From positions 27,843-91,842 of the forward strand of contig CAZCXU010000002.1 in NCBI GenBank assembly GCA_964502885.1: DNA of 64,000 nucleotides, read 5' to 3'. Shown here one piece after another: positions 3,980-29,188 of the stretch. Source of the DNA: an uncultured Gammaproteobacteria bacterium (GTDB lineage: Bacteria > Patescibacteriota > Microgenomatia > CAZETR01 > Amesbacteraceae). Both the position numbers and the translations under genes were made by a program. Under the pieces are notes generated by a model. It saw only the letters and a program-made list of their open reading frames with translations, had not been told where the DNA came from and did not search any database. The stretch's first letter is position 1. Every line of letters begins with the position of its first letter.

Positions 3980-4479
3980 ACCAAAAAAAGAAAGACGGGG
4001 CATTTGTGGTACTTTTTAGAGATAACTCAAAGAGTGAAGTATTTTTGGTATACAGGTCGGATTGGCCGATTTGGAACTTGACTGGTGGAGGGATGGAGAA
4101 AAATGAGAACCCAAAAGAAGCAGCAATCCGGGAAGCGTTTGAGGAAACGGGGTTTAAAATCAATATTGTTCGTAAAGTGGGTGTGTATGAATTTGTGGAA
4201 CCAAGAAGTGGCCGGCACATCAACTACAGCCATTTGTTTGAAGGGCGGATTGTATCTGGATCTTTTGTACCGGAATTCCCCGGGTGTCGAGGCCAATGGT
4301 TTCCTCTGGCCAAACTACCAATTGATACGACAGACAGCACAAAGAAGAGGATATATGATGCGGCATATTTTTCCGGTAAGCCGTTTACAAAAAAGTGGTG
4401 CAGATCAACGCTCGTCAATAATTTGCACCTGTTTTTCCGTCATCCAATAGCAGCCGTAAAGTACTTTGGTCGGAAATAA
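3961..4479 (+). CDS. NUDIX hydrolase
   Basis: The Nudix box GGGMEKNENPKEAAIREAFEETG is present (Gx5Ex7REUxEExGU). The gene overlaps the preceding gene by 19 nt. Confidence 0.85.
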   Translation: MVLKSLDQKKKDGAFVVLFRDNSKSEVFLVYRSDWPIWNLTGGGMEKNENPKEAAIREAFEETGFKINIVRKVGVYEFVEPRSGRHINYSHLFEGRIVSGSFVPEFPGCRGQWFPLAKLPIDTTDSTKKRIYDAAYFSGKPFTKKWCRSTLVNNLHLFFRHPIAAVKYFGRK

Positions 4480-4519: not shown

Positions 4520-5794
4520 TCAGTATGGATAGGAAAAGACTGAACCACTACCCAGCTCTTCCTCTATTCGAAGCAGCTCATTGTATTTACCCACTCTTTC
4601 GGTACGGGACAATGAGCCGGTCTTTATTTGGCCAGTACCCAGTCCAACCGCTAAATGTGTAATACTGGTGTCTTCCGTCTCGCCGGAACGGTGCGAGATG
4701 ATGGAATGAAACCCAGAACCCGTGGCTAGAGAAATTGCACTGATAGTCTCAGTAAGTGTACCGATTTGATTCAACTTGACCAAAATTGCGTTACATGCTT
4801 TCTGATCAATCGCTTTTTGTAAGAATCTGACATTGGTTACCAGCAGATCATCGCCTACAATCTGAATCCGATTGCCCAGCGTTGACTGCAATATGCTCCA
4901 ATTTTCCCAATCATCTTCTGACAAGCCGTCTTCAATTGATTGAATCGGATAATTCGCCACCAGGTTTTCCAGGTAGCTGATCATTTCGCTGCCGGAAAGA
5001 CTCTTCCCGTCAGCTTTTAGTTCATAATGACCATCCTTGTAAAATTCCGAAGCGGCAATGTCCAGAGCGAAAGCGATATCTTTTCCCAACTGATATCCGG
5101 CAGCTGAAACTGCACGGCTGACCAATTCCAGACTTTCCCGATTGCCATTTTTTACCCGAGGGGCGAACCCCCCCTCATCCCCCACTGTGGTTTCGTATCC
5201 GGTTTTTTTGAGAATATCTTTCAAGTGGTGAAACACTTCTGACCCCATGCGCAAAGCTTCAGAAAAAGTCTTTGCTCCAACCGGCATAATCATAAACTCC
5301 TGAATATCTGAAGCGAAATCTGCATGAGCACCGCCATTTATTATATTCATCATCGGCATAGGCAATGATGGCGTTACCCCAGGGGATAGAGAGTTGAGAT
5401 ATCCATAGAATGGAAGTTTCAGAGAAGAAGCACAAGCCTTAGCATAAGCCAAAGAAACGGACAAAACTGCGTTTGCACCGAGATGAGATTTATTTTCGGT
5501 GCCATCCAGATCGAGCATCTTTTTATCGAGTAATGCCTGATTATAAATATCGGAGCCTACAAATAACTCACGCAGATGGGTGTTTACATTTTCGACTGCT
5601 TTTAAAACTCCTTTACCCAAATAAGCTTTAGGGTCCCCATCCCGCAATTCCAAAACCTCATGAGTACCGGTGGACGCACCTGAGGGAACTGAAGCGCGGC
5701 CAAAACTGCCGTCGGCTAGCTGCAAATCAGTTTCGACTGTAGGATTACCACGAGAATCGAGGATTTGACGGGCAAACAGGCGAGTAATCTTCAT
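4520..5794 (-). CDS. eno: Enolase (phosphopyruvate hydratase)
   Basis: [23 protein letters not shown]...[20 protein letters not shown] is present. I trimmed the start to ATG 5794. The ORF-track extension to 5956 is non-conserved upstream sequence. Confidence 0.95.
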
Positions 5795-6118: not shown

Positions 6119-7507
6119 ATGTTGAAAAAGGCAGTTGTTTGGGTAAAAAACAGGAGTCTGAAGCAGAAATTGCTACTGATCTGTTTGTTGGTAGCGGCAG
6201 TAGTGGTGAGTTATATGTCTACAAGCAACAACGGGTCTGCAAAGACGGTATACGCATCTGCAATAGTGGAAAAGGGGACATTGGTGACTTCGATTTCCGG
6301 GTCTGGAACGATTTCCTCGGGAAACTACAGCAACGTAAATACAAAAGTTTCCGGAGTAGTAAATAAAGTATATGTAACAAACGGCGACAAAGTGGTACGA
6401 GACCAGAAAATCGCGGAAGTGACGCTGGATGATTACGCCAAAGAAAGACAAACCGCAGCATGGGTCACATATCTGGAAGCTACCGAAGCCGTAAAAGAAG
6501 CACTAAATAATAAATCTCTGGCAGATATAGGAATGTGGAACGCAAGACAGGAAGTGCTTGATGCACAGGAAGCAAAAGATGATATGGAAGATAACGACAC
6601 AAACCCTGCCACACACGCTGTATATACCGACAACGAAAGAATGATTATCAATAAAACACTCGATCAATCGAGACTGGCTTTTTCCGTTGCGGAAGCAAAA
6701 TACAAAAACGCTGATGCAAATATCGCCAACGCTCATGCAAAAGTCGCTGCCGCCAAGAGAAATTACCAGGAAAACTCAGCGACAATCACAGCCCCGGAAA
6801 GCGGGGTTATCAGCGATTTACTACTGGCACCAGAACTGATCATCAATTCCAATTCAACAACCAGCAATACCAGCGGAGCGACGATAGTATCTGCTCAAAC
6901 CATAGCAAAAATCAGCAATCCAAATGGCCAACTGATGGCGACAGTAAATATGTCTGAAATAGACGTCATTTCTGTTAAAGCGGGGCAAAAAGTGACGATT
7001 ATACTGGACGCTTATTCTGATAAAACATTTACCGGTAAGGTGCTTGCTGTAAATACCAGCGGAACTTCCAGCTCCGGCGTCACTTCATATCCGGTAACAA
7101 TTCTTCTAGACCCGACAAAGACGGAAATTTATCCAAACATGGCAGTAAACGTAAATATCATTACCAAAGCAAAAAATGATGTCTTGATGGTGCCGACTAC
7201 TGCCATTACTTCCGCAAACGGTGTATCGACCGTACTGGTGAAGAAAGACGGCAAATACGAGACTGTGCAAGTAGAAACCGGAGATAGCAATGATTCACAA
7301 ACGGAAATTGTATCGGGACTTTCAGAGGGCGAGACCGTGGTGACTTCAATTACCACTGCGGGCGGATCAAATTCCAGCACAAACAATACAACATCGCCAT
7401 TCAGCGGATTGGGGATAAGAACCGGAGGCGGCGGCACCAGGGGAGGAACATCGACATCAGGAAATCGAATAATGATTCAGAGTTTTGGCGGTCCAGGAGG
7501 ATTCTGA
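6119..7507 (+). CDS. Efflux transporter periplasmic adaptor subunit (HlyD/MacA family) with Ser/Thr/Gly-rich C-terminal tail
   Basis: An N-terminal membrane anchor is followed by a coiled-coil-like region and a beta-barrel region (TITAPESGVISDL..., KVTIILDAYSDKTFTGKVL). It is the first gene of a three-gene operon with an ABC ATPase and an FtsX permease. Stop TGA and the next ATG are 1 nt apart. Confidence 0.8.
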   Translation: MLKKAVVWVKNRSLKQKLLLICLLVAAVVVSYMSTSNNGSAKTVYASAIVEKGTLVTSISGSGTISSGNYSNVNTKVSGVVNKVYVTNGDKVVRDQKIAEVTLDDYAKERQTAAWVTYLEATEAVKEALNNKSLADIGMWNARQEVLDAQEAKDDMEDNDTNPATHAVYTDNERMIINKTLDQSRLAFSVAEAKYKNADANIANAHAKVAAAKRNYQENSATITAPESGVISDLLLAPELIINSNSTTSNTSGATIVSAQTIAKISNPNGQLMATVNMSEIDVISVKAGQKVTIILDAYSDKTFTGKVLAVNTSGTSSSGVTSYPVTILLDPTKTEIYPNMAVNVNIITKAKNDVLMVPTTAITSANGVSTVLVKKDGKYETVQVETGDSNDSQTEIVSGLSEGETVVTSITTAGGSNSSTNNTTSPFSGLGIRTGGGGTRGGTSTSGNRIMIQSFGGPGGF

Positions 7508-7508
7508 C

Positions 7509-8219
7509 ATGGACAAGCCAATAATCGAAGTCTCGCATCTGAACAAAGTTTACAAATCAGATGACCTGGAAACTACTGTACTTTCGGACATATCAATAAA
7601 GATCAATCAGGGTGAATTTGTGGCAATTATGGGCCCTTCCGGATCCGGGAAGTCAACATTGATGCACATACTGGGAGCCCTGGACCTGCCGACAAGCGGC
7701 AGTTATAAACTGAACGGCGAAGAAGTGGGCAACATGACAGATGACAAACTTGCAGAAATCCGCAATAAACAGATTGGTTTCATTTTTCAAGCGTACAATC
7801 TCCTACCCCGGACATCTGCGCTGGATAATGTACTTGTGCCAATGGAATATGCCGGTATTCCGGAAGATCAGCAAGAAAAAAAAGCAATTGAACTGCTGAA
7901 AATGGTAGGACTTTCGGACAGGATGCATCACACTCCAAACAAACTTTCCGGAGGTCAGCAACAACGAGTAGCAATCGCAAGGGCGCTGGCCATGAATCCT
8001 ACAATGCTTCTGGCTGATGAGCCGACTGGAAATATAGCCACTGCGCAAGCGGAAGAAATTATGAGAATTTTTCAAAAATTGAACAAAGCGGGACATACGA
8101 TTGTGATGATTACTCACGAATCAGATATCGCCGGATATGCACAGAGGGTAATTTATATCAGGGATGGGAAAATAGTGACTGATGGAAAAAATTTAAAACA
8201 AAGATTATCAGCCGCATGA
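7509..8219 (+). CDS. ABC transporter ATP-binding protein (MacB/LolD-type NBD)
   Basis: Walker A GPSGSGKST, Q-loop, LSGGQQQRVAIARAL signature, Walker B LLADEPTGN and H-loop MITHE are present. The start is ATG 7509, not the upstream TTG. Confidence 0.92.
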   Translation: MDKPIIEVSHLNKVYKSDDLETTVLSDISIKINQGEFVAIMGPSGSGKSTLMHILGALDLPTSGSYKLNGEEVGNMTDDKLAEIRNKQIGFIFQAYNLLPRTSALDNVLVPMEYAGIPEDQQEKKAIELLKMVGLSDRMHHTPNKLSGGQQQRVAIARALAMNPTMLLADEPTGNIATAQAEEIMRIFQKLNKAGHTIVMITHESDIAGYAQRVIYIRDGKIVTDGKNLKQRLSAA

Positions 8220-9451
8220 TAATGGTTGTGAATATAAAGAAATTATTAATTAATGGAATGAAGAATTTGGGAATTAACAAAATGAGGACTGGGCTGGCGA
8301 TGCTCGGAATTGTAATTGGAATTGGAAGTGTAATAGCTCTGATGTCGCTGGGAGAGGCCAGTAAGATGGCAGTGCAATCGCAAATACAATCTATCGGATC
8401 GAATTTACTTACGGTATCTCCGGGTTTCACTGTGTCCGGAGGGGTCAGAGGCGCTGTTGGGGGCGGGACAACTCTCACAAATGATGATGCGAAAGCGATT
8501 CGCAACTCCGCTAAAGTAGCAACTATTAAGAATGTATCTCCGGAATATTCCGGACGAGCGCAAGTTACGGCCGGCAGAAATAATACAAATACAACAGTGG
8601 TGGGGGTAGAACCTGTGTATGCGGAGGTAAGAAAGATCTCTCTATCTTCCGGAACATTTATAAATGAGCAGCAACTTACCGCAATATCCAAGGTGGCAAT
8701 CATCGGTCCAAATACGGCGGAAGACCTGTTTGGTTCAGGTGTCGATCCGGTTGGTCAATCTATCAGAATTTCGGGCAAGTCGTTTCAAATAATCGGGGTC
8801 ACCAAGTCCAAGGGCGGGTCGGGAATGAATAATCAGGATGATCGAGTACTCATACCCCTAACGACGGCCCAAAAACAAGTGTTTGGGAAGAACTATCTGA
8901 CCGCGATCGCCCTGGAGGCAAAAAATGAAAGTGTCATGACCAGTGCACAGAATGAAGTCGGGTACCTACTGCTGGAAAGACATAAGATTTCTGAAGTGGC
9001 TGATGCTGACTTTCGGATAATGTCGCAAGCTGATATCCTGGAAACCGCTTCGCAGGTGACAGGCACCTTTACTTCAATGCTTACAGGAGTTGCGGCGATT
9101 TCACTCCTGGTAGGAGGAATCGGGATTATGAATATTATGCTTATGTCGGTCACTGAAAGAACGAGAGAAATAGGACTCCGAAAAGCATTGGGTGCAAAAC
9201 GAAGAGTCATAGTGGCACAATTTTTGACTGAATCTATCATTTTGACTTTTTGGGGAGGAATAATTGGAATTACCGCCGGAATATTAGGTTATCTATTGTA
9301 CGCAAAATTTAATGGCACCGCCTTTGTGGTATCACCAGGATCGGTGATGTTAGCGTTTAGTGTGTCTGCTGCAATAGGAATCGCATTTGGCTGGTATCCG
9401 GCGCAAAAAGCTGCCAACTTGCAGCCAATTGAAGCCCTAAAATATGAATAG
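8216..9451 (+). CDS. ABC transporter permease, FtsX/MacB family (~220-aa extracytoplasmic domain)
   Basis: N-terminus NLGINKMRTGLAMLGIVIGIGSV, a C-terminal FtsX 3-TM bundle with TERTREIGLRKALGA, and an ATGA overlap with the ATPase. Confidence 0.9.
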   Translation: MIMVVNIKKLLINGMKNLGINKMRTGLAMLGIVIGIGSVIALMSLGEASKMAVQSQIQSIGSNLLTVSPGFTVSGGVRGAVGGGTTLTNDDAKAIRNSAKVATIKNVSPEYSGRAQVTAGRNNTNTTVVGVEPVYAEVRKISLSSGTFINEQQLTAISKVAIIGPNTAEDLFGSGVDPVGQSIRISGKSFQIIGVTKSKGGSGMNNQDDRVLIPLTTAQKQVFGKNYLTAIALEAKNESVMTSAQNEVGYLLLERHKISEVADADFRIMSQADILETASQVTGTFTSMLTGVAAISLLVGGIGIMNIMLMSVTERTREIGLRKALGAKRRVIVAQFLTESIILTFWGGIIGITAGILGYLLYAKFNGTAFVVSPGSVMLAFSVSAAIGIAFGWYPAQKAANLQPIEALKYE

Positions 9452-9492
9452 TCTTAAGGATTACTTCAGTTTAGCGGGAATAAAATAGCACT

Positions 9493-9945
9493 ATGAAAGA
9501 CGTGAAGCCAGCGGTCGCAGCCATATTAATAGTGATGGGTGCGATAGTCGGATTTGGAGGAGGGATGTGGTACCAGAAGTCGAGGAATCCGATGCGGTCA
9601 GGGTTTCAGATGAGCGCCGGTAATCGATTTGGTGCGATTGGCGAAGGAATACAAAGACGGGCAATGTCGGGGTTCAATGGCGGTGGAATGGTGGTGGGTG
9701 AAGTAGCTGACAAAGACGGTGAATCATTGACAATTAGGACTATCGACGGCAGCTCAAAAATTATCCTGATAAATTCTTCCACTCAATATCGAAAATCAGC
9801 CGACGCAACCAGTGACGATATAAAAAAAGGAGACACGGTAGCAATTTCCGGAACAAATAATCAGGATGGCAGCATTACAGCCTCCAACGTGCAGCTTAAC
9901 CCCGGGTATGGTGTGAAAGTGACTGGTGTGCCCACGGAAAAATAA
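9493..9945 (+). CDS. Hypothetical membrane-anchored protein with beta-rich (OB-fold/BOF-like) C-terminal domain
   Basis: An N-terminal TM (AVAAILIVMGAIVGFGGG) is followed by a C-terminal GEVADKDGESLTIRTIDGSSKIILINSST...GDTVAISGT pattern reminiscent of periplasmic OB-fold proteins. No catalytic motif is visible. Confidence 0.45.
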   Translation: MKDVKPAVAAILIVMGAIVGFGGGMWYQKSRNPMRSGFQMSAGNRFGAIGEGIQRRAMSGFNGGGMVVGEVADKDGESLTIRTIDGSSKIILINSSTQYRKSADATSDDIKKGDTVAISGTNNQDGSITASNVQLNPGYGVKVTGVPTEK

Positions 9946-9978
9946 TCGGGAGTAAGCCGCTTTGACGAGTGATGCTAT

Positions 9979-11121
9979 TTGTGGAAAAATGTGTACATGA
10001 GAGAAGAAGGAAGAGAATTTTCAAGTATGACGGGGGGGATAAAAATTGAACTTGGCGATCACCCAGACAGCGCCACTGATTACCAAAAACTGGGGAGGAA
10101 TTTTTTTGGTGGAGATTTGTCGGTTAATGCATGGAATCCGGAAGTAGGTAAAAGGGTGGCAGTATATAAACCGGATACCCTTGCGCTCGATGGACAGCCA
10201 CGGACATGGGGAGAAAATGATTTTTCTCGGATTGAAAAGGCAGAGATATGGATACGTTTGCCGTCGAGAGTTGCGACGCTGAGACCGAAAGATTGTACCA
10301 TTCAGATCGTATGTGGGGATGTGGCATTTACAAATACCCCAGTAATTACCTCCCCTGATGTTGACCCTAATAAATACGATCAAGTTCGATATGGAGAACG
10401 AGATTTTCAACAAAAAATGACAGCAATAGCAAAGTTATCAGCAAATGTCGGCGCATTACTCGTAGCAGCGGGAACAACGATTGGTGAAAATACGGATAGC
10501 CGGGGGGAAAAGTCACGGGGGTTGACGAGAAGGCAGTTTCTGAGAAGAGCAGCTTTGACCGTGGCCGGAGTCATATCCACAAATTTGATGGCAGGATGGA
10601 CGCGAAGGGAGTTGCAAAAAATGGCTGCGAAAGGAGAAGACGCATCGGAGGCTGACGCGGCAATAGATGGCGCCGATTTCCTTTCCAAATTTACACCCTG
10701 GAACGAATATGTGGACGGGAGGACGGCACTTTTGATTGCAAAAACCAGAGAAGTATCCAATAATGCGGCCATTCTCCTCGGGTATAGCCATGGAACACGA
10801 CTGCGGGAACTCCTATCTTCAGCACAAACCAGGGGGAAACTTATAGCGGGACTGGCAACTTACGAACTGGACCTTATGGATAGGATCATTGATGAATATT
10901 TTCCGGGTGCAGATAAAGTCGAGGCTGCAGACAAGATGCGACTGTTAATTACCACCACGCAAGTGGCCGAAGTCAAAGACGTAGAGAATGAACTGCGTTC
11001 AGGCGATCCATTGGGATATGTGGATAGACATGTCAGACTAATTAGCACCCAGATCTGCAAAGAGGCGGAAGATGCAGTCAAGCCTGTTTTTGAAGCATAC
11101 AAAGAAAAGGTCCAGCAGTGA
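9979..11121 (+). CDS. Hypothetical protein, possibly two fused modules. The second half begins with a twin-arginine-like motif
   Basis: TTG start in the track, with ATG options at 9997 and 10417. There is an internal SRGLTRRQFLRRAALTVAGVIS stretch that looks like a Tat/signal peptide near residue ~180. No recognisable catalytic domain. Confidence 0.4.
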   Translation: MWKNVYMREEGREFSSMTGGIKIELGDHPDSATDYQKLGRNFFGGDLSVNAWNPEVGKRVAVYKPDTLALDGQPRTWGENDFSRIEKAEIWIRLPSRVATLRPKDCTIQIVCGDVAFTNTPVITSPDVDPNKYDQVRYGERDFQQKMTAIAKLSANVGALLVAAGTTIGENTDSRGEKSRGLTRRQFLRRAALTVAGVISTNLMAGWTRRELQKMAAKGEDASEADAAIDGADFLSKFTPWNEYVDGRTALLIAKTREVSNNAAILLGYSHGTRLRELLSSAQTRGKLIAGLATYELDLMDRIIDEYFPGADKVEAADKMRLLITTTQVAEVKDVENELRSGDPLGYVDRHVRLISTQICKEAEDAVKPVFEAYKEKVQQ

Positions 11122-11150: not shown

Positions 11151-13187
11151 TCATTCGTAACGGAGGGCGTTGAGAGCAGAGATTTTGGTTGCCCGATGAG
11201 CAGGATATATGCCGGTGAGCAGTCCGACGACCAGAGAGAGCCCGATGACTATGAGTATGAATGCGGGAGGCACATGGGAGATATCAATAAACCCAACCCC
11301 CTTGAAAACGGCGAATGCCGAAAGCAGTACTCCCAACAACTTGCCCATAGTAAAGCCGATTAACACTCCGATAGCGCCGCCAAAAAAGCCCATTATCATG
11401 GATTCGGTGAGAAACAATTCCCGAACTTCATCCGATTTCATGCCAATTGCTTTCATGAGCCCCACTTCCCTGGTTCTTTCCAGCAATGAAACAGTAAGAG
11501 TATTGAACATACCCAATGATGCAACTGCCAAAGCTACCATGCCCAGCAAGGCAAGAATGGTCCTAATTGTCGCAAAGAGATTGTTGACCTGTTCGACAGT
11601 ATCTGCGACCGACCGAGTGGTGAAACCCAGATTTTCCACTGATTTACGGATTTTATCCAGATTTCCAGGAGATTTGGCAGCAAGTTTCAGTTGGCTGAAG
11701 TTGATAATGCCAGCCCCCCGAAGATCGATAAAAGGGACGTACATTATGGGAGATCTATCCTCCGGAATTACCCCGACTATTTTGTACTCAGCGGGAATGG
11801 TCTCAATTTTGGCTTGATCTTCCCCCGTGAGATTACCCACAATCACAAATGTGGTTGAGATGGTTTTTCCGATGGCTTCAGCGTCTTTGAGACCCAACAC
11901 CTTTACCATAGCTCTACTGACAACCGCTTCCCGCAGCGACTTATCGGATAATGGCACTTGCTTTACCGGAGCAACTGCGGATTGAGCGGAAACACTGGCA
12001 ATCTCCACCCAATCTCCATCCTCAATAATTCCGGATTCGGTCGCAAGAACTTCAGGGTTAAGTATTCCATCCGCACTGATGCCCAGAACTGATGAAGCTG
12101 GAGAAACCTGAACGTTTAATTGGGCGATATAACCACCTTTCACAACCTGCTCCCCCTCCTCTGTGACTTTCTGATATCTGCCATCTTCACACTCCGGCAA
12201 ACTGGGGTCGCACGCCCCCAGTTTCCATAATGGGAAATCGGAGTTAATCCAAGGCATCAGGAGATCTCCCCGACTATCGGCTGCCTGCGGCAAATCGTCT
12301 GACCCCGCATAAGAACTACCCCATACTTCTTTGCCCCGTAATTCACCGAAGTTCCTTTTTGTGTAACCTAAAATGGTGGATTTGGTACTGGGTCCTTGCC
12401 GAACACGCACCCATTCATCCGGTTCGATAGAATAATTGACGTCTCTGGAAAAACTGCCAAATTCCGCAGATAGACGCTCGCTGCTCATACCAGCTACACG
12501 ATCATCCGAAGGGATAGATGAGATAGAGAGGTCATTGTTTTCAAACACTGCACCCTCAACCGGTTTTATGGCCGACTGTTTGAGATAGTCAGAGGTAATA
12601 CCATAAACGGCTATGTCGGTGATTGAATTTTGGTAATTTATCCTTCCAACTACAGAGATAACTGGCAGGACAGACTCGACTGAATCGATGTTTTTGATAT
12701 CGTTGATGATTTTGTCATTTATTTTGACTTTGCTCCCAGTCTGCGGGCTGACGTCAGCCTGGCGGATTTCTTCAAGCCGAGCGATGCGGGTAACCACTAA
12801 ATTCTGCAAACCATAGCCCAAAGACACCAGAAAAACTATTGCTCCGATGCCAATAGTCATGCCCCCGATAGTAATCATGGTGCGGGTACGTTTGGCGCTC
12901 ATATTGCGAAGAGATAGTTCAATTAAATGAACACGAGAAATTGATCCTGCTCTACCACGATCGACGAATGACACACATCTGTTGAGGAAATTTTCCGAGG
13001 ACTTTGTCCAATTGTCGCGTACAGATACCGGAATCAGGCGAAGGCGTAGAATCCTGGAAAGAGCCTGTGTACTCATATAAACCGTCAGCAACAACATGAA
13101 GGAAAGGGTGGCCGAAGTCGATGATCCAACGCTTGTCCACAACCTGCGTGAGCCAATATTTTTAAATTTACTCAGTAATCTGAACAT
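11151..13187 (-). CDS. ABC transporter permease, FtsX/MacB family with very large (~450-aa) extracytoplasmic domain
   Basis: N-terminal motif LSLRNMSAKRTRTMITIGGMTIGIG and C-terminal FtsX bundle LLERTREVGLMKAIGM...IYPAHRATKISALNALRYE. ATG 13187 overlaps the upstream ATPase by 20 nt. An alternative start is ATG 12902. Confidence 0.8.
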   Translation of the reverse strand: MFRLLSKFKNIGSRRLWTSVGSSTSATLSFMLLLTVYMSTQALSRILRLRLIPVSVRDNWTKSSENFLNRCVSFVDRGRAGSISRVHLIELSLRNMSAKRTRTMITIGGMTIGIGAIVFLVSLGYGLQNLVVTRIARLEEIRQADVSPQTGSKVKINDKIINDIKNIDSVESVLPVISVVGRINYQNSITDIAVYGITSDYLKQSAIKPVEGAVFENNDLSISSIPSDDRVAGMSSERLSAEFGSFSRDVNYSIEPDEWVRVRQGPSTKSTILGYTKRNFGELRGKEVWGSSYAGSDDLPQAADSRGDLLMPWINSDFPLWKLGACDPSLPECEDGRYQKVTEEGEQVVKGGYIAQLNVQVSPASSVLGISADGILNPEVLATESGIIEDGDWVEIASVSAQSAVAPVKQVPLSDKSLREAVVSRAMVKVLGLKDAEAIGKTISTTFVIVGNLTGEDQAKIETIPAEYKIVGVIPEDRSPIMYVPFIDLRGAGIINFSQLKLAAKSPGNLDKIRKSVENLGFTTRSVADTVEQVNNLFATIRTILALLGMVALAVASLGMFNTLTVSLLERTREVGLMKAIGMKSDEVRELFLTESMIMGFFGGAIGVLIGFTMGKLLGVLLSAFAVFKGVGFIDISHVPPAFILIVIGLSLVVGLLTGIYPAHRATKISALNALRYE

Positions 13188-13921
13188 TACGCTTGCCTTT
13201 CATATTTGAAAATAACTTGTCCTTACTTTTTTCATCATACATACCCATTAATTTTCCATCGAAAATATGAATGGCAGACTGGGCATACTTGATATAGTCC
13301 AAATCGTGGGTGACCATGACGACAGTTTTCCCCTGTTTTAGACTCATGTCACGAAGCATCTGCATGAGCATTTGTCCCCCTTCATAATCCAAATTTCCGG
13401 TGGGTTCGTCGGCGATAATTATTTCAGGGTCGGTGACTAGAGCTCTGGCCAAAGCTATACGTTGCTGCTGTCCACTGGAAAGATCGGTGGGGCGGTAATT
13501 GGCCCATTCCAACATACCTACCTGCTTGAGAACTTCAGAGGCCCGGGCAGTGGTGATATCTTTTGCCTTACCCAAAAGCAGCATGGGAAAGCCGACATTT
13601 TCGATAACGGTCAGCGATTTAATCCAATTAGGCTGCTGATACACCATGCCGATGTGAGATTTACGAAAAGCGCTGCGCGCATCTTCGTTTGGCAGAGAGT
13701 ACAATTCCTGACCCAATATATTTACGCTTCCGGAAGTGGGAGGTTCCAGTCCAAGAATAATGTGCAGAAGAGTAGACTTGCCACATCCTGAAGGCCCGAA
13801 GATGACCACAAAATCACCCTTGGTAATCGATATTGATATTCCCTTGAGAATATGAATATCCTGGCTACCTACATGAAATTTTTTTTCGATGTCTGTAGTG
13901 GAAATGATTGATTGTCCCATA
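13168..13921 (-). CDS. ABC transporter ATP-binding protein (MacB-type NBD)
   Basis: Walker A GPSGCGKST, LSSGQQQRIALARAL, Walker B IIIADEPTGNLD and VMVTHD. The start ATG 13921 lies 4 nt after the stop of the giant upstream gene. Confidence 0.9.
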
Positions 13922-13925
13922 TATT

Positions 13926-16900
13926 TAACGACCAATTTGCCCCAGGAAACCAAATGCCTCCTGAAGACTACCTACAACTAAGTTAAGAGCATCGTCTGTG
14001 GCCTTGGGAGTAATAGTGACGGTATCTACTGAATAGGCGATGTTCTGAGCCTTATCTTTTGATACGGCACGGAAGTGGTAGACCTTTGATGGAGACAGAC
14101 CGGAAATTATCACCAGGTGGTTGAGTGTCATATTGGTATCTTCCTGAGTCTTTTGGCTATAAGTAGTTCCGGAACCTTCACCAAACTCCACCTGTGAAGT
14201 TGTCAATTCGTCAGTATTCCAGGAAACAACGATTTGGGCGGTCTGGTCAGACTTATTGCCGGAGTTTGTGACTATAGACCCTTCCGCCTGAAGGTCGGAA
14301 ATTAGCGCCGGACGTGTATCTGTGGCGGTATCGAATTTTTGCGGATCAGATACAGCTTCATTCCCGGCTTTGTCACGACCTTTGACGACCAGAGTGTAGG
14401 GAGTTTCGGACTGGAGGTTTTTGATAAGAATGCGATGCAGGCCCTTTACCAGGGTAACGTTTACCTCATCTTTGGCATCGGATGGTTTTCCTGAGGGATA
14501 GTAGGTGACGATGGAACTAACTTCGGTATTGGTTTCCCAACTCACCAGCACAGTCGGCTGGGCAGTGCCTTTTACCTGCTGGATACGAACGGTGGCAATC
14601 TTTGGACGCGGCAGGGTAGAAAAGCTTAGGATAGTCCCCTCGTATTCAGCTGACTCACTGTCAAAAGTATTAATCTTGTAGTAGTACTTTGTGCCGTCTT
14701 CCAAACCTGTCAGCTCCTGAGTGTAGGTGGACTCCGATGTAGAAGTGGAAATAGTGGCTACCCCACCAAAGGCCGTGGTCTTGCCATAATAAATCTTGGC
14801 GCTCGATGCGCCGGTAGTCGTGAACTGGACGTAAGCTGAGGTCAGGCCGGCAGTTTTTATAGCAGCATCTTTGACGGTGGGAGCGGCAGTCGTCGTGAAA
14901 CTTTTCTCTTCGGAGGTGCCTGTATTACCATCTTCGTCCGTCCACTTGGCTTTGTAATAGTAGGTTGTGCCGGGCGAAAGATTGGTCAAGGCAATGGTGT
15001 GACTGGCGACCTGGCTGGAATTACTCGGCTCGACTGACCCATACGAACCGGCGGATGTGCCGAATTGAATTTTTGAATCACAAGTGCGATCGGTAGTCCA
15101 GGTAATAGTGGCCTTTTTGGTAGTTATTGATCCGGCAGTCGGACCGGAAGTGAGCGAAGCTGCTGTAGTGTATTTTCCGGTAGGTGTTTCAGAGACCGAA
15201 CTGGACAAGGCACCGCAATTGTCTGCATCATCGCAAGCCTTTACTTTATAGTAATACTCGATTTGAGACAATCCGGTATCGACATAGGCTGTGCCAGTCG
15301 TAGACCCCTGGTAGGTATATGTCGAATCATTTGTGGAGCGATAGACCTTGTAAGCCGAAATACCGGAACCAACTGATGATGGGGCAGCCCATGAAACCGT
15401 AAGTCTCCAAGTAGAACTGTTTTTTATGGATATATCAGAAACTTCCAAACTGAGAGGTATGCCCGGAGCAGATGTATTGGCTGAAAATGACTGACTGCGG
15501 GCGTTGGCGTAGTCGATAGTACCTCCGTAGATGTCCGGATTTTTGGCGACCACCCAAAAGGTATTGTTTTGCATGGTAGCAAAATTGTCCGGTCCGACCG
15601 CGGTAACTCCGGCGGCAGTCCAGTTGCAGTGTTCGGCAGCATTTTCCGCAGTCGGCTGGCGATTAACCATGTAGCAATAACGAAGTTCTGATGACGCCCC
15701 AAGGTAACTACCAGAATCTGGCGCGTTCCAAGTGAAAGTAAATTCATTGACCGACTTAGTCTCATCGTCCACCGCAAGATTGTTTACCGGCCCAGGACCG
15801 GAACCGGCATAATAAAAAGTGACATAGCTTGGTGAAGCGGTAGCGTTGCCGGCATTATCGATGGCCCGAACATAGAATCTATTGGCCCCGCTGGTATAGG
15901 CGATATCGGTCAGAGAAATTGATGTTGAAGTGGTGGTAGAAGACCAGTCTGCCAATTCCGCCGAAGATGTGGCGGCATATTGGTATCCGGCAAGACTGGA
16001 ATCTGAGTCTGAAATTGCAGTCCAACTAAAACTGAATGAGTTTTGGCTGGTGTAGACTTCGGGGGAAACCGAAATTACGGGAGCTCCGGGAGCCGTGCCA
16101 TCGTACTTGTAAGTAAAAGCATCCGTGGTCTGACTTTTGTTGCCGGCGTTATCCAGCGCCTTGATTAATAAATGCAACTCCCCTGACTGGGTGGCAGTTA
16201 CTGAATAAGTAGTGCCGGCCTGAAAAGCCCCGTCGGTTTCCGGATCCGGATTTGAGTCCGTGAGACCAAAATAGACATAGTAACCAGACACACCAGCTCC
16301 GGTATCAGTGGAACCGTCCCACGAGAAGTAAAGCCGATTTTCGCCATACCACTGGGTATCCCCGCCGGTAATGATATCCCCTGAAGCATTGAGGACACGG
16401 GCTTCGGCTGTATCAGGGTCAGAGGGAGGGGTTGTATCGGTAGTACCATCGACACGGAGAGAATTGATCTGGACCTGCTGTGTACCATCCCCGGAAAGAA
16501 CTGCCCGCCAGAGGATCCCGTTTGAATTGACAGGGAATGAGGAAATATTTGAATTGATGTCTGATACTGAACTGGATTCGCCCAGGGAACTGCAAGCGGT
16601 GGTTGTCCAGGCAGAGTTGTACCAATACTTCCAGGTGGTTCCATTGTCGCTGGATATACAGTATTTAATAGTCCCCACTGCCGATACATCGGCAGTAAAG
16701 CCGCTCCAATCGTCTATCTGGGTAGTCAAACGTTTGGTGACAGGCTGTAGAGTGACGGCTGATGATGAGTATGGAGCAAGAACGAAGGAACTAGGTGATC
16801 TGGCAGTACCAGATACTCGCAGTTCATCAATGACAGCATCCAGGAATCCCCGTCCCGACCAGGTCTGGGAGCTACCATAAGAAGTACCCACAAGAAGCGG

Positions 16901-19900
16901 TCGAGCGGAATTCTCTAATGTGATAGTGCCAGAATCGTTGTTTGTCTGGACGCTACCATCTATATACATAGAAGCAGATGTGCCATTGTAGACTACGGCA
17001 TAATGATGCCAATCAGTCGGAGATGAAATGGCGGAATCTGATTCAACATATAAATTGTCTCCATAAGACCAAACTGTAGTTTCTGTCTGGTTTGAATCTC
17101 CGGTACCGGCATATAACTTACCTTTGAAAGCAGTCAATCCGTAGACGGAGTTTATGTTATCAGTTTCCAACCAAGTGTTGTTGTCCAGACCATCACCTCC
17201 GACCTGAGTCCAGGAAGTGCCGTCAAACCGCCAAACTTCTCCCTCGGCGTCACCACTGGATAGCCCGGCAAAAAGATAGCCGTTGTAAACTGTCAGTGAA
17301 CGGACGATTTCATAATCGGCCCCCCAACCTCCATATCCGGAGTCAGCACCGAGTCCGGCCACCTGCGTCCATGCCGACCCATCGTATTTGTAAACTTTGG
17401 CGTCACCAGTCGAAGCGCCCAGGCCGGCATAGAGTTCGTTGTTGTACATGGCCAGCGAATAGACACCCTCGATACCATGAGTATTCCACCAGGAACCATT
17501 GGCTGGCGCGGAAGTGGCCCCGGCATTGGCGATCTGGGTCCAGGTACCGGCTGTTTTGTTGTAGCTCCAGACATCACCATCACCCGCCGAAATACCCAAT
17601 CCGGCATATAACGTACCCGCATCGCTGATCAAACTGAGTACCGACTCAATATTGTCCGCATCCTGCCAACCAGTAGCGAGGGCGGGAGATTTTCTACCGG
17701 CAATCTGAGACCAGGTGTCTGCGGTGCCGTCGTACTGATAAACTTTTCCATCATCTGTCGAAAGACCAAGACCAGCGTACAAGTAACTGGAGTCGGAGGA
17801 GAGGCTGTATATGGCTTCGATATTGTCGGCATCCACCCATGAACCAGTCTTGCCTGATCCGTGCCCGCCAATCTGCGACCAGGCTGACCCGCTGTATTTC
17901 CATACCTGGCCGTCGTCACTGTTGGTAGTGTTTCCAAGTCCGGCATAAAGATCGCCACGATAATCAACCAAGCTCTCAACGGTTTCAATGGTGTTGTAAG
18001 CCCAGCTACTGTTAGTCTGCTGACCTCCAACAAGAGACCAAGTGGACCCATCGTACTCCCAAACAGTGGAATCACCGGTACCGGAACCTGTACCGGCATA
18101 GAGTTTTCCTGCCCTGGTGCTAAGCGACATAACCCGATCAAGTCCGTTGTAGCCCCAACTACCGTACTTGTACTGTGTACCTACAAGCTCCCAGGAGCCA
18201 GTATATTTCCAAAGCTGGCCCAAACCAGCGCTATTTGTATAAACCCCCGCATAAAGAGTGGAACCATCGAGGAGCATTGACCTGACATAAAGGTAATTAG
18301 CTCCTGTCCAGGTGGAGTTGACACCATCTCCGCCCAGCTTGGTCCAGCCAGCTGTATTGTTACAAGTAGAAGCCAAATCACAACTCCAAACCTCGGCGTC
18401 ACCTCCACTATCTCCAAGGGCGACATACAATGTGTCCGATCCGGCCTGATCATCGACTGCCAATTTCCAGATGCGTTCGAATGCATTGTTCCAGGACTGA
18501 GGCGCTGTACCTGAACCCGTGTTGCCATCAACAAGCGCTGTCCCCCCCCAGGCATTGGCACCGGTGCAGTTGGATGTGTCGGTATAGTTGCAACTCCAAA
18601 CTTCGGCATCACCAGCGGAAGCACCCAATCCTGCCAGTAACTGAATATCCCCTGATGTGTCTGTGTAGCTGGTGATGGTCATAACAGCCTCATAAGCGCT
18701 GTTTGCCCAGCTGCCGAGCGTGCCATCGCCGCCGATTTTTGTCCATCCGGCAGTTCTGGTGCATCCCGAAGACGTATCACAAGCCCACAATTCCGCTTCG
18801 CCAGTCGTATTGCCAAGACCGACATGAATGCGGTCTCCAATGAAATGAATGGCCCAAACCTGATCGTATCCTGAGTTCCAGCTATAGCCAGCAGAGGCAC
18901 TTCCTGAGTCACCGCCAATTTGAGTCCAACCTGTAGTTTTTGTACAAGCCACAGAAAGATCGCAGGTCCAAAGATCTCCTTCTGAAGCCCCATTACCTGT
19001 GCCGACGTAGAGATTTGTTCCATTGACTGCCAGAGCTGTGATCATATTTATGCCGGTATTCCAGCTATAGCCTGCGGAAGTACTACCGGAGTCACCACCG
19101 ATCTGATTCCAGGAAGTCTCTGATGAGTCGTAGTACCAAAGATCGGCATCACCGTCGCCGTTGCCCATGCCGACAATGAGATCATCACCATAGGCAACCA
19201 TCTGGGTAACCTCGTCGTATTGGTTGTCCGGCCAGCTACTGTATAAGGAATTGCCGCCTATGCGGGTCCATGAGTTGGTACCATCGAAACGCCAGACTTC
19301 AGCATCACCATTTGAGTAACCAGTGCCGGCATAAATATATGAACCAACTTTTACCAGAGAACTGACGCTCATCTTTCCGTCGGCGTCCCAACTGAGGCCA
19401 ATTTCACCACCGGCCTTCTGCGCCCATGTCTGGGTGGTGTTTGGCATAGCCTCGTAAACCAACTTGCCGGTCTGATTGTCAAAGTACATTTTGTATTCGC
19501 CTTTGTCGAGAATGTATTGCCTGTCCGGGTGTGTCCCTGCCGAAAAAGAATTATTGAATTTGACCCAAGATTCAAGAGTGTGCGAGCTTGAATCAGAAAG
19601 CGAGACGGCGTTTCCAGTGTCCGGTACGGAAATGTATGTGGCGGAACCATCAAGCTTTAAAGCACCAACTCCGGTACCAGTACCATCCAGTTTACCGGAG
19701 GTCCAAAGAACAGAGGGCGTCGGATTCGGGAGATTAAGCGTCCCATGATTTGAGCCAGTACTGGAGTCAGTGACGGTGGTCCCGGAAAGATCATCAAAGT
19801 GGGCCAGAAATTTGGTATTTGCATCGGATGAGTAGTTTCTGACTTTGAGCCGTGCAGAGGAACCGGTAATTTCGATAAGACTTGAATCGGAAAGAGTGTA

Positions 19901-20089
19901 CTGGTCAGCAGAAACAAATGTCCATTGATAGTGGCCGGCGCCTGATGAGTCGGCCAGAATAGGAGCCACACGCAGAGTTGTAAAAGCACCGGTAAGAAAA
20001 CCTAAAGTGAATCCCAAGACCACCAGAAGATTGAACTGCCACCGCATAAAGGTGACATGGCTATTTATTTTTGGCAGGAAATATGACAT
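13926..20089 (-). CDS. Giant (~2,050-aa) cell-surface protein: signal/anchor, LamG (concanavalin-like) domain interrupted by ~16 beta-propeller-like repeats, then multiple fibronectin type III domains
   Basis: N-terminal TM LLVVLGFTLGFLTGAF. The first LamG half is ATYISVPDTGNAVSLSDSSSHTLESWVKF. There are ~16 repeats of ~50-55 aa with consensus LYAG(L/T)G..GDAEVW.YDGS.WTQIGG. The second LamG half is DWHHYAVVYNGTSASMYIDG...GFLDAVIDELRVS. The C-terminus has at least 5 Fn3-like modules (YKVYRS...YYYKVKA; TYYYKAKWTDEDGN; TKYYYKINTFD; TPYTLVVKGRDKAGN; KVYHFRAVSKD). Confidence 0.85.
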
Positions 20090-20284
20090 GAAAATGGCTT
20101 TTAAATCCGGTTTACTGACAATTTTTACACTTAGGCCACGCAGCAATCTCCAATGAAGTGGCTTTCTTATGTATGGTAACTATATCCCGCAGAGATAATT
20201 CCTGTAAATAAGGTGTTATCGCCAGTTTTTTTTAAATTCGATTAGATAACCTGCCGGATATCCATTCATGATATTCTGATAGTG

Positions 20285-20461: not shown

Positions 20462-20497
20462 ACTCGTTTTTGGTCTTTTATGTATAATCTGCGAACG

Positions 20498-20968
20498 ATG
20501 AGGATAACGGTTGTTTATGACTCTCAATTTGGGAATACCGAAAAGATAGCAAGGCAAATAACCAAAACGCTCCAAGGGATGAGACACAAGGTTAATCTGG
20601 TTCATGCTAAGGACGCAACAGAAGCAGACACATTGAAAACAGATATGCTCATAGTCGGCTGTCCGACACAGGGAGGCAGACCTACATTGAAGATGCAACA
20701 ATACCTGGTGCAAATTCCTGATGAAATCATGGCAAATGTAAGAGTAGCCGTTTTTGATACCAGATACATGAAGCGGGAACAAAGTTTTGCATTGAAATTA
20801 CTGATGGACGTAATCGGATTTGCCGCCGAGAAGATGATGGAAACTTTGATAAAAAAAGGCGCTAGACCGGTATCTGAACCGATGGGGTTTATTGTGGAGA
20901 CAAAAGATGGTCCAATTCGAAAAGGAGAACTCGAAAGAGCTTCCAGATGGGTGAGGAGCTTAGTCTAA
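20498..20968 (+). CDS. Flavodoxin-like protein
   Basis: MRITVVYDSQFGNTEKIA is the classic flavodoxin N-terminal FMN-binding loop (T/SxTGNTE). The likely start is ATG 20498. TATAAT at 20483-20488 sits 9 nt upstream. Confidence 0.8.
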   Translation: MRITVVYDSQFGNTEKIARQITKTLQGMRHKVNLVHAKDATEADTLKTDMLIVGCPTQGGRPTLKMQQYLVQIPDEIMANVRVAVFDTRYMKREQSFALKLLMDVIGFAAEKMMETLIKKGARPVSEPMGFIVETKDGPIRKGELERASRWVRSLV

Positions 20969-27366: not shown

Positions 27367-29136
27367 ATGAAAAACATCGGTAAGATAGTTAAAGTTTCCC
27401 GCCCTCTGTATACGATATTGGGACTGATTGTTTTCCTGATAGTGACATCTGCCGGGTTAGACCTGGCTGCCCCCCTGGTATCAAAACAAATTGTCGACAA
27501 CATCATGGCACAGATTTCCGGAGGGAGCAGCGGCAATCTGACTACTTTGATCTGGCTTGTGATCCTAACTTTTGGCCTAAACCTGGCCGGAATTGTCGTG
27601 TCTGCCATATCAGAGAGACTGGGAGATCATTTTGCCGGTAAACAAAGGCAACTGCTCACTGAAAAGTTTTATGGAAAAGTACTTGCGTTGCCACAAACAT
27701 ATTTTGACTCGGAAATGTCTGGAAAGATTGTCAATCAGTTAAACAGGGGGATATTTACAATTCATGGTTTTACGAACGCGGCAACAAATTTTATTGTCCC
27801 ATCGCTTTTACAGAGCATATTCACCATTGTGGTGTTGGCGAAGTATAGCTGGCCTATTGCCGTATTTGTCTCTTCATTGTTTCCTATCTATATTTATCTG
27901 ACATACTACTCCGCCAAAAAATGGGGAAAGGATGAGGATAGAAAAAACTCACTGGAAGACCAACTGCGAGGAAGAATTCAGGAAGTAGTGGGTAATATAA
28001 AAATCGTAAAGGGTTTTTTGATGGAACGGCATGAATACTCATTTGTGTCTGAAAAACTGACAGAGATTAACCGTATCTACAGCAAGCAAAGCACGATTTA
28101 TCACCAAATCGATTTTTTACGAAACTTATCTTTGGTGGTGATTTTATTGGGAATAAACATCGTGGTTTATTACCAGACTTTTACAGGGGCAATGACAGTG
28201 GGAGAGATGGTGCTGATAATTCAGCTTGTGCTTCAGGCAAGGAGACCATTGTTTGCCATGTCATATATTCTCACACAAATGCAGGAAGCTGAGAGCGGAT
28301 CAAAAGAGTTTTTTGAAATCCTGGAATTGCCTGAAAATGAAAAATATGACACTAATCCAAAAGCGAAAAAGCTAGTCAGACCATCTTTGGCATTTGAAGA
28401 TGTCTCCTTTAATTACAAGGATTCAGGAACCGTGTTGGATGGAGTGTCTTTTAAAATTGAACCAAACGAAAAGCTTGCCATTATTGGTCATTCTGGAGCA
28501 GGAAAGACTACTATCACAAATCTTATTTTGAAGTTATATCAGCCAACCGGCGGAGATATTTTTCTATCAGGAAAAAGTTACAAAAAGATGGATTTTCGGG
28601 AAATCCGCCAAAATATTTCGTTGGTGTTTCAAGAGAATGAATTGTTTTCTTCGACAGTGAGGGAAAATGTCGCTTATGGAACAACTGCCAGCGAAAAAGA
28701 AATCATTGAAGCCTTAAAAATGGCAAATGCATACGACTTTGTGATGAAACTACCAAAGGGCCTGGACTCAGAAATAGGAGAAAGAGGATTAAAACTATCG
28801 GGAGGACAGAAACAAAGAATTCAGATTGCCAGGGCCATTCTGAAAAATGCACCAATACTGATACTTGATGAGGCAACCAGCAGTCTGGATGCCAAGTCGG
28901 AAATGGAGGTACAAACCGCTTTAGACAAATTGATGAGAAATAAACTGGTAATTATTATTGCGCACAGGTTTTCTACCTTGCAGAACGTGGATAGAGCTAT
29001 GGTAATTTCCGGCGGAAAAATACAACAAATGGGCACACCACATGAACTTGCGCAAGCTCCGGGAATATATGCTGACTTATTGAGATATCAGATCGAAGGC
29101 AATAAAAAATTACTGGAGGGTTTTGAGCTGGCTTAA
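27367..29136 (+). CDS. ABC exporter, fused permease/ATP-binding protein (MsbA/type I exporter-like)
   Basis: Six N-terminal TM helices, then an NBD with GHSGAGKTT, LSGGQKQRIQIARAIL, ILILDEATSSLD and IIIAHR. RBS AGGGAG sits before the ATG. It is divergent from csoR. Confidence 0.9.
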   Translation: MKNIGKIVKVSRPLYTILGLIVFLIVTSAGLDLAAPLVSKQIVDNIMAQISGGSSGNLTTLIWLVILTFGLNLAGIVVSAISERLGDHFAGKQRQLLTEKFYGKVLALPQTYFDSEMSGKIVNQLNRGIFTIHGFTNAATNFIVPSLLQSIFTIVVLAKYSWPIAVFVSSLFPIYIYLTYYSAKKWGKDEDRKNSLEDQLRGRIQEVVGNIKIVKGFLMERHEYSFVSEKLTEINRIYSKQSTIYHQIDFLRNLSLVVILLGINIVVYYQTFTGAMTVGEMVLIIQLVLQARRPLFAMSYILTQMQEAESGSKEFFEILELPENEKYDTNPKAKKLVRPSLAFEDVSFNYKDSGTVLDGVSFKIEPNEKLAIIGHSGAGKTTITNLILKLYQPTGGDIFLSGKSYKKMDFREIRQNISLVFQENELFSSTVRENVAYGTTASEKEIIEALKMANAYDFVMKLPKGLDSEIGERGLKLSGGQKQRIQIARAILKNAPILILDEATSSLDAKSEMEVQTALDKLMRNKLVIIIAHRFSTLQNVDRAMVISGGKIQQMGTPHELAQAPGIYADLLRYQIEGNKKLLEGFELA

Positions 29137-29188
29137 AAAATGCCACTTTACAAAATAACAATACTGGGCTTATAGTTTCGGATAGTCA

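Follow-up and report, generated by a model that had tools for sequence, protein, structure and literature searches.

We analyzed a 64,000-nucleotide (nt) stretch of DNA (hereafter, the window; positions 27,843 to 91,842 of contig CAZCXU010000002.1) assigned to the Amesbacteraceae (Patescibacteriota), and found that three adjacent genes, encoding a giant surface protein, an ATP-binding cassette (ABC) ATPase and a MacB/FtsX-type permease (hereafter, the triad), belong to an envelope system conserved across the Candidate Phyla Radiation (CPR). The system is of a known kind, a type VII ABC transporter with an extracytoplasmic partner; its new features are the type of partner, a module in the permease ectodomain and the phylum-wide distribution. 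We tentatively interpret the transporter as a mechanotransducer by which a giant host-binding protein is held or actuated, in an FtsEX-like arrangement. The claim in the original prediction, made from the bare sequence, that a giant protein/ABC/FtsX combination is not a described system agrees with our literature search, itself incomplete, in which no description of the triad was found: the papers found offered no more than general comments on the large surface proteins of CPR, annotations of ftsEX genes and accounts of diversity-generating retroelements (DGRs). Existing annotations of homologues go no further than ABC transporter permease, FtsX-like permease, DUF2341/LamG/FN3 domain-containing or hypothetical protein.

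All triad features given below lie on the minus strand of the window. The giant-protein open reading frame (ORF; 13925..20146) comprises 2073 amino acids (aa) counted from a TTG codon, and translation probably starts at M20 (nt 20089), as judged from a conserved N-terminal motif. The ABC ATPase gene (13168..13920; 250 aa, in an ORF spanning 13168..13953) and the gene for the type VII (MacB/FtsX-fold) ABC permease (11151..13187; 678 aa) follow. The TAA stop of the giant gene (13925-13927) is separated by a 4-nt spacer from the ATPase ATG at 13920, as read from the junction sequence, and the permease ATG at 13187 lies inside the ATPase frame, which stops at 13168, an overlap of 20 nt. ORFs and junction sequences agree on three tightly packed genes with 4-nt and 20-nt junctions, as had been proposed. 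Because the upstream neighbors are on the plus strand (including a flavodoxin gene at 20480-20968), the giant gene is the first of the unit, and because the gene 3′ of the permease (9979-11121) is convergent to it, the triad is self-contained. The best promoter-like site, a consensus match TTTACA-18-TATAGT, was just upstream of the giant gene (20179..20208). However, promoter-like and terminator-like sites of the region were not enriched over shuffled sequence; thus, it is the gene spacing that suggests co-transcription and translational coupling of the triad.

To assess conservation of the triad, one genome of each GTDB species was scanned by pattern, and permease relatives were detected in at least 567 species; the best 80 of these matching species were examined with 10-kb flanks. 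Hundreds of permease homologues were full-length, with 50-63% identity, and were from Patescibacteria wherever the source names them. Lineages with relatives include Collier-, Shapiro-, Woese-, Davies-, Beckwith-, Roizman-, Moran-, Nomura- and Pacebacteria, WWE3 and WS6. Many third-party metagenome-assembled genomes (MAGs) bearing the triad (L001, L004, L008-L010, L012 and others) are titled Gammaproteobacteria, Pseudomonadales or Bdellovibrionales, titles that look wrong; these titles, and Saccharibacteria where it occurs, were treated as unreliable.

The 80 loci were fetched via the permease alone, and a giant-protein homologue was found beside the ABC pair in 69 of them by ORF and BLAST analysis. 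In the other 11, the contig ended no more than 2.2 kb upstream, so that the association held in all 69 evaluable loci. The original prediction had staked itself beforehand on conserved gene order, and gene order is what was found. The arrangement was strictly colinear in 58 loci, with only the ATPase gene between the giant-gene stop and the permease start and with junctions mostly between -4 and +11 nt. Non-colinear loci still held all three genes adjacent: extra genes were inserted within the triad in seven (L011, L012, L016, L036, L041, L048 and L072), the ATPase was fused to the permease in L005 and L077, the ATPase gene was divergent in L060, and the giant gene was on the opposite strand in L052. 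The ATPase gene was confirmed by tblastn in five loci. Genes flanking the triad differed from locus to locus, and triad order was kept in the most distant family members examined. A protein search with the conserved C-terminal part of the giant protein gave 87 matches, which are not a census because the word prefilter saturates on FN3 repeats.

At least two genomes carried the triad twice. Two complete copies were present on one contig (JBAYIT010000002.1; loci L006 and L024) and two in one MAG (L043 and L052). The giant proteins differed within both pairs, and each had its own ATPase and permease; the giant proteins of L006 and L024, the one pair whose heads were compared, clearly diverged beyond the signal peptide. 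At L016:824-8128, two tandem giant-type genes (1428 and 989 aa), both of which have the N-terminal signal motif, precede a single ATPase-permease pair.

The giant protein begins with an extended signal peptide or signal anchor (aa 20-65; 19952..20089), recognized by an N-terminal hidden Markov model and by alignment across loci. It consists of a basic stretch, the motif RWQFNL, a hydrophobic helix with GxxxG and a cleavage-like PILA followed by D. Homologues likewise have a basic stretch, often with F.R.QFNL, and a hydrophobic helix, often with GxxxG.Y, after which they share IFA followed by (S/A/L)D..W.F....DY..SD....EV....A.LKV. This pattern probably represents an extended, cleaved Sec signal peptide, the cleavage itself being suggested by the motif; some homologues have a plain signal peptide instead. 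No lipobox Cys follows the signal in the N-terminal alignment of homologues, in which the IFA end is succeeded directly by (S/A/L)D.

The next part of the protein, which we call the head, contains a LamG (concanavalin-A-like) domain in two halves, the N-terminal one at aa ~105-235 (19442..19834) and the C-terminal one at aa ~1040-1127 (16766..17029), separated by about 790 aa of repeats. Both halves were recognized in a spliced construct: when aa 60-260 were joined to aa 1030-1127, Laminin_G_3 matched with E 2.3e-16 over 148 of 151 profile positions. Pfam did not detect LamG in the intact protein, where only C-terminal FN3-type domains matched (fn3 and four Pur_ac_phosph_N stretches). The 14 intervening blade-like repeats, LYAGxG...GDAEVW.YDG..W..IGG (17057..19429; 52-60 aa each), form a variable head inside LamG and probably fold as two seven-bladed propellers. 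Thus, of the predicted LamG/propeller/Fn3 composition, the Fn3 part was confirmed directly by Pfam; LamG is a real single domain, but a split one; and the propeller is supported by the repeats themselves, whereas Kelch matches to them were insignificant. No RTX family was detected by Pfam. Two conserved segments, aa 66-105 (nt ~19832-19951) and aa 1143-1245 (nt ~16412-16720), bracket the LamG halves, which in turn bracket the propellers. The architecture thus looks nested, and a conserved domain may have been split by insertion of the entire variable head.

Homologues showed that the head between signal and stalk is replaceable. Besides LamG with propellers, we found DUF2341, FGE-sulfatase/C-type-lectin (CLec), FG-GAP/VCBS, Kelch, NHL and fibrinogen-C heads. 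In 13 of the 80 loci, bAvd and reverse-transcriptase genes occurred just upstream of the giant-protein orthologue, and in the three of these that were checked, a template repeat (TR) was paired with a variable repeat (VR) located inside the giant homologue (L002, TR 3022-3140 and VR 5596-5714; L006, TR 2568-2683 and VR 5529-5644; L011, TR 643-762 and VR 3869-3988). In these three loci the VR was internal, in or beside the FGE-sulfatase/CLec domain and about 1100 aa from the C-terminus; in L002 it lay ~365-405 aa into a 1544-aa protein and adjoined the lectin-like domain. Every TR-to-VR difference in the aligned L002 and L006 repeats was at a TR adenine. The exchange of ligand-binding heads, together with the adenine-specific VR changes, therefore indicates that the head is a ligand-binding module that is hypermutated in some lineages. 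These proteins resemble the DGR-diversified C-type-lectin proteins of CPR in being DGR targets, but their VR is internal rather than C-terminal. The window protein differs from such targets in having a LamG/propeller head, and the window ORFs that were compared included no homologue of reverse transcriptase or Avd, no dedicated search having been made. One DGR survey contained no mention of ABC or FtsX.

Following the head is a conserved C-terminal module of ~930 aa (the stalk; aa 1143-2073, 13928..16720), which would be rigid. It starts with a beta-sandwich carrying an Asp-box-like SSDNGTTW and continues as a run of Ig/FN3-like domains, of which the last four are of the Pur_ac_phosph_N type. 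Its final ~520 aa were 55-72% identical across CPR classes, compared with 27-50% for the propeller/head region. The protein ends in an invariant tail, TPKATDDALNLVVGSLQEAFGFLGQIGR (13928..14011), defined by alignment of homologues, with the consensus TITPKAT.NAL(N/D)LVI.NL...FGFLG. This tail was at the extreme C-terminus in 70 of 70 giant-protein homologues, was still recognizable in distant members and was hydrophobic (mean 0.45-0.48). The C-terminus had neither a transmembrane (TM) segment nor an LPXTG motif, and therefore another anchor is needed. A sortase, exosortase or rhombosortase-type signal was considered for the tail and rejected, as the tail is too short and polar for a TM helix and no proper basic anchor follows it. 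A short SILGQ form of the tail exists beside the FGFLGG form; co-variation of tail type with loss of the N-terminal permease helix described below was also rejected, since that helix is present in all clades.

The ATPase has intact motifs (Walker A, GPSGCGKST; signature, LSSGQQQR; Walker B with catalytic Glu, IIIADEPT; H-loop, VTHD) and matches ABC_tran with E 5e-36. The nearest NCBIfam models of this nucleotide-binding domain (NBD) were LolD, FtsE (second-best), DevA and MacB, each with a score under its cut-off. For the permease, Pfam reported FtsX (E 2.9e-20, aa 548-670) and MacB_PCD (E 1.3e-15), the latter over profile positions 1-117 of 207, before a family-specific insert; the rest of the MacB_PCD core was visible after the insert in an AlphaFold (AF2) model, which was built on 20 homologues and had a predicted local distance difference test score (pLDDT) of 74.5. 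In the model, an N-terminal helix (aa 13-47) is followed by cytoplasmic helices, a long TM1, the ectodomain and a TM2-4 bundle. A Foldseek search against the PDB matched MacB (5gko, 5lil and 5nik), Streptococcus pneumoniae Spr0694-0695 (5xu1), LolCDE, YtrEF, HrtBA and YbbAP, with E values of 1e-13 to 4e-17 for MacB, LolCDE and 5xu1; the best matches included 5gko, 5lil, 5xu1 and 9o9x, and the ectodomain-only structures 5f9q, 3ftj and 5udf also matched. The permease is thus a type VII ABC protein of the MacB/FtsX superfamily, with an FtsX-type TM2-TM4 bundle (11154..11609) that includes a 55-residue TM2 stalk helix (aa 527-581), a TM1 separated from it by the ectodomain, a Porter(/Sabre) core and a cognate NBD. 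The predicted MacB/FtsX family identity of the transporter was confirmed by Pfam domains and Foldseek matches. The ectodomain, a MacB-type Porter/Sabre core with the insert (aa 136-526; 11610..12782), is about 390 aa long in the model rather than the ~450 aa first proposed. ATPase and permease are fused in some homologues (P0093, P0106, L005 and L077).

By NCBIfam, the permease was nearest to ADOP, MacB and LolC/E, and was far under the cut-offs of the FtsX models. These scores bear on the idea that the ABC pair is the FtsEX of the CPR divisome, controlling peptidoglycan remodelling, with the giant protein serving as a scaffold where the cell divides or attaches. In favor of this idea, FtsE ranks second among the NBD models, and the insert may resemble cell-wall-binding domains of peptidoglycan hydrolases. 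However, the cut-offs of the FtsEX equivalogs were not reached, those of FtsX by far (FtsX_Gpos, 43.4 bits against a cut-off of 225; FtsX_Gneg, 34.1 against 255; FtsE, 191.9 against 264.85), the ectodomain is of the MacB_PCD type with a Sabre-like part and not of the FtsX type, and no hydrolase or coiled-coil families, including activator domains, were found in the giant protein, its variant heads or the neighbors. Other CPR genomes have been reported to carry ftsEX, annotated by sequence similarity (PMC11809585, PMC13059738); those genes may be distinct from the present permease family. We consider a divisome role very improbable.

Two additions set this permease family apart. One is an extra N-terminal hydrophobic helix, TM0, with the motif F.LLL..Y (aa 17-47; 13047..13139), which was conserved in all permease homologues, is absent from canonical 4-TM MacB/FtsX proteins and would insert in the membrane. 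The other is the insert in the ectodomain, a putative SH3b-like domain of ~130 aa (aa 238-366; 12090..12476) with conserved residues W259, R263, W289, W313, W321, C326 and C333. Modelled alone, it reached a pLDDT of 93.7, and in the AF2 model of the whole permease it is flanked by low-confidence linkers (aa 221-237 and 365-404). Sequence searches with the insert gave nothing significant, and an exhaustive profile search of 1.84 billion representatives found it in only 157 proteins, nearly all of them permeases of ~620-860 aa, ATPase-permease fusions of ~950-1000 aa or shorter fragment-like proteins. Some permeases contained two tandem copies (P0002, with 844 aa, P0208, P0213, P0214, P0219 and others). 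The SH3b-like insert on its flexible linkers and TM0 point to an interface with a partner or with the cell wall.

These additions also bear on another explanation, in which the ABC pair is an ordinary MacB-type pump for efflux or peptide export that shares no more than a transcript with the surface protein, having no physical or mechanistic link to it. The ATPase and the TM domain do resemble generic MacB/LolD-type components, permease homologues carry the Joint Genome Institute (JGI) label antimicrobial peptide transport system permease, and a canonical HlyD-ABC-MacB operon is located next door (6119-9451). MacB in MacAB-TolC and the Gram-positive MacB-like pumps Spr0693-0695, YknXYZ and YtrEF are like the triad in structure, in having MacB_PCD and FtsX domains and in their MacB/LolD-like NBD. 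In contrast to those pumps, however, the triad has no membrane-fusion protein and no outer-membrane duct, and no HlyD adaptor gene was present in the window triad or among recurrent neighbor families across loci. Its ectodomain carries an SH3b-like domain, and it is linked obligately to a giant protein instead of to small-molecule or peptide substrates. An unconnected pump is also difficult to reconcile with synteny in 69 of 69 loci across deep CPR lineages with variable flanks, with a separate pump for each paralogous giant protein, and with the confinement of insert and TM0 to the permease family that travels with the giant protein. We regard this explanation as quite improbable.

The neighboring genes (6119-11121, plus strand) encode HlyD, an ABC ATPase, a MacB permease of 411 aa, a DUF5666 protein and a 380-aa protein without family match. 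The HlyD gene (6119-7507) is part of an operon that is distinct from the triad, convergent to it and equipped with ABC and MacB genes of its own, and the convergent stop codons of the two sides are only 29 nt apart. A joint system of this operon and the triad was considered and rejected, as the operon is convergent, self-complete and not conserved beside the triad elsewhere.

Histidine kinases, of CHASE4-PAS(-HisKA-HATPase) or GAF type, were neighbors of the triad at 20 of 80 loci, in at least four arrangements (e.g., L036:6331-8865; L044:11869-13751 and related loci; L011:12015-13205; also L012, L034, L037, L048, L054 and L072), and many of these loci also had single-domain response regulators (receivers). 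Kinase or regulator genes were even placed between the giant gene and the ATPase gene in L012, L036, L048 and L072. Like BceAB-BceRS, then, these loci couple a type VII ABC transporter genetically to two-component genes, and the triad could be a sensor of the BceAB-BceS kind, in which ligand binding by the head is relayed through the stalk to the ABC cycle and on to a kinase or other effector, so that the system converts signals and is not a motor. The ligand-binding nature of the heads, some of them DGR-diversified, would suit this role. However, no kinase was found near the triad in the window or in most loci, the permease has 4-5 TM helices and not the 10-TM Bce architecture, the CHASE4-PAS or GAF kinases differ from Bce kinases in having sensors of their own, and part of the kinase adjacencies reflects a single synteny inherited within a clade. 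A Bce-like sensor is therefore improbable in our view.

Type VII ABC transporters act on extracytoplasmic partners by mechanotransmission (PMC11466899). For the triad, we propose, tentatively, the following mechanism. The giant protein would be exported by Sec via its own signal peptide and would display a lineage-specific ligand-binding head (here, LamG and a double propeller) on the stalk, with the invariant C-terminal tail as its cell-proximal end. The tail and the last FN3 domains would dock on the enlarged ectodomain, or on an outer-leaflet groove, of a dimeric permease, the tail serving as a docking or anchoring handle, and the SH3b-like insert would tether the permease to the cell wall. 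As in FtsEX-EnvC/PcsB, the long TM1/TM2 stalk helices would convey ATP binding and hydrolysis to the ectodomain, and the giant protein would be repositioned or reshaped, that is, deployed and retracted or opened and closed. The same path in reverse could report ligand binding inward. The long stalk helices are seen in the model; homodimeric assembly and mechanotransmission are proposals, and so are the assignment of the proximal end, the function given to the SH3b-like domain and the direction in which force or signal would travel. A more specific and possible, though unlikely, version is an ATP-powered adhesin, in which a wall-braced MacB-fold motor would extend, retract or re-orient the host-recognition protein or gate host contact.

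Several observations favor a direct, stoichiometric pairing of giant protein and transporter: linkage is obligate, with one transporter per giant protein in the two-triad genomes; stalk and tail are unusually conserved for a surface protein, which has no other C-terminal anchor; and the permease has family-specific additions in an ABC class that works by mechanotransmission. The closest parallel is FtsEX with EnvC, PcsB, CwlO/SweCD or RipC. Both are type VII ABC systems with the FtsX-fold 4-TM bundle and a separate NBD, and the likeness that we propose is that the ectodomain holds an extracytoplasmic partner, which is not transported, and passes ATP-driven movement to it, with operonic genes and a link to the wall. 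The triad differs from FtsEX in its MacB_PCD-type ectodomain (Porter and Sabre) with an SH3b-like insert, in the extra TM0 and in its partner, a lectin/propeller/FN3 protein of ~2000 aa without hydrolase or coiled-coil domain. A conceptual analogy, without homology to the triad, is offered by the gliding legs Gli349/Gli521 of Mycoplasma mobile, giant surface proteins of a wall-poor, genome-reduced bacterium that are moved by cytoplasmic ATP hydrolysis; the motor in that case is F1-ATPase-like and not an ABC transporter.

The dedicated export of the giant protein that had been proposed is unlikely if it means passage across the membrane. Transporters of the type VII ABC class lack a channel through which polypeptides could cross the membrane, and since, in addition, the giant protein has its own Sec-type signal, the ABC pair is unlikely to be its exporter. 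Type I secretion systems (LapA/LapBCE, RTX) are likewise different, because the triad permease has the FtsX fold and not ABC_membrane, and the giant protein carries an N-terminal Sec-type signal.

A step after translocation is a more serious alternative. In a maturation or release system similar to LolCDE, the giant protein would at first be held at the outer leaflet by its hydrophobic C-terminal tail or by an uncleaved signal anchor; the transporter would use ATP to pull this segment from the membrane and hand the protein to the wall or surface layer, and the giant protein would be a substrate and not a permanent partner. LolCDE is also a MacB-fold transporter, and the likeness proposed here is that an extracytoplasmic protein is gripped by a hydrophobic handle at the outer leaflet and moved by means of ATP. 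The structural matches of the permease include LolCDE and HrtBA, conserved hydrophobic segments occur at both ends of the giant protein, and the obligate linkage of its gene to the transporter would be expected here as well. Type VII transporters are known to extract membrane-embedded moieties (PMC11466899). However, the client has no lipobox Cys after its signal peptide and no acyl anchor, there is one permease gene and not a LolC/LolE pair (the lolCE model scored 74 bits on the permease against a cut-off of 362), and no LolA-like acceptor is part of the triad. With a tail that hardly varies across phyla, several giant proteins could share a single transporter; nevertheless, where a genome has two giant proteins, it has also kept two transporters. 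A stoichiometric complex is the better match for the tight 1:1 operon layout, although this is weak evidence. We consider a LolCDE-like release unlikely, but with a real share of the probability.

Several points weigh against the mechanotransducer reading. We infer the physical contact between giant protein and permease on which it depends. The amphipathicity of the tail is moderate, as 7.5% of shuffled sequences reached the observed hydrophobic moment, and the GxxxG-containing N-terminal helix of many homologues could be an uncleaved anchor, in which case the N-terminus and not the tail would be proximal. The loci inspected were only the best 80 of at least 567 matching species. Finally, the ~680-aa permease seems to be missing from cultivated oral Saccharibacteria; the transposon-sequencing tables of Southlakia list only MacB permeases of ~405 aa, and therefore no essentiality data apply to the triad. 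The essential Southlakia FN3 and VCBS genes SEML1_0890 and SEML1_0891 were considered as relatives and rejected as small and unrelated.

Other features were observed elsewhere in the window. An S-adenosylmethionine (SAM)-I/IV riboswitch (858-985, plus strand; 47.9 bits, above the gathering score) is located directly upstream of metK (1003-2103, plus strand), which encodes S-adenosylmethionine synthetase. At 27367-31036 (plus strand), an ABC gene is again paired with one for a lectin-like protein: directly after a type IV-fold ABC exporter (ABC_membrane and ABC_tran, 589 aa) comes a 615-aa protein that has a LamG domain at its C-terminus. A large, probably surface-exposed protein of 1346 aa with a GH31 C-terminal-type domain and FN3 repeats is encoded at 37149-41189 (minus strand). 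No tRNA genes were found by ARAGORN in the whole 64-kb window.

CPR bacteria, or Patescibacteria, account for a large share of bacterial diversity, and their cultivated members live attached to host cells. To our knowledge, the mediators and regulation of this contact are largely unknown beyond a few cultivated Saccharibacteria. The triad is a good candidate for machinery of contact between CPR bacteria and other cells. It is conserved across Microgenomates, WWE3, WS6, Parcubacteria-type lineages and environmental Saccharimonadia, includes one of the largest proteins in these tiny genomes, and ties a variable, sometimes DGR-hypermutated head, as expected for a host-recognition module, to a putative ATP-driven mechanotransducer. 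The system can be defined from sequence, by the tail motif together with the SH3b-insert permease, and it gives part of the abundant DGR repertoire of CPR a place in a defined envelope machine. The range of functions known for type VII ABC transporters would be extended as well. If the proposed mechanism is correct, this would be the first type VII ABC transporter to exert mechanotransmission on an adhesin or receptor and not on an enzyme, a lipoprotein or a small molecule, and an ATP-powered adhesin would represent a new class of energized cell-cell contact machinery in CPR bacteria.

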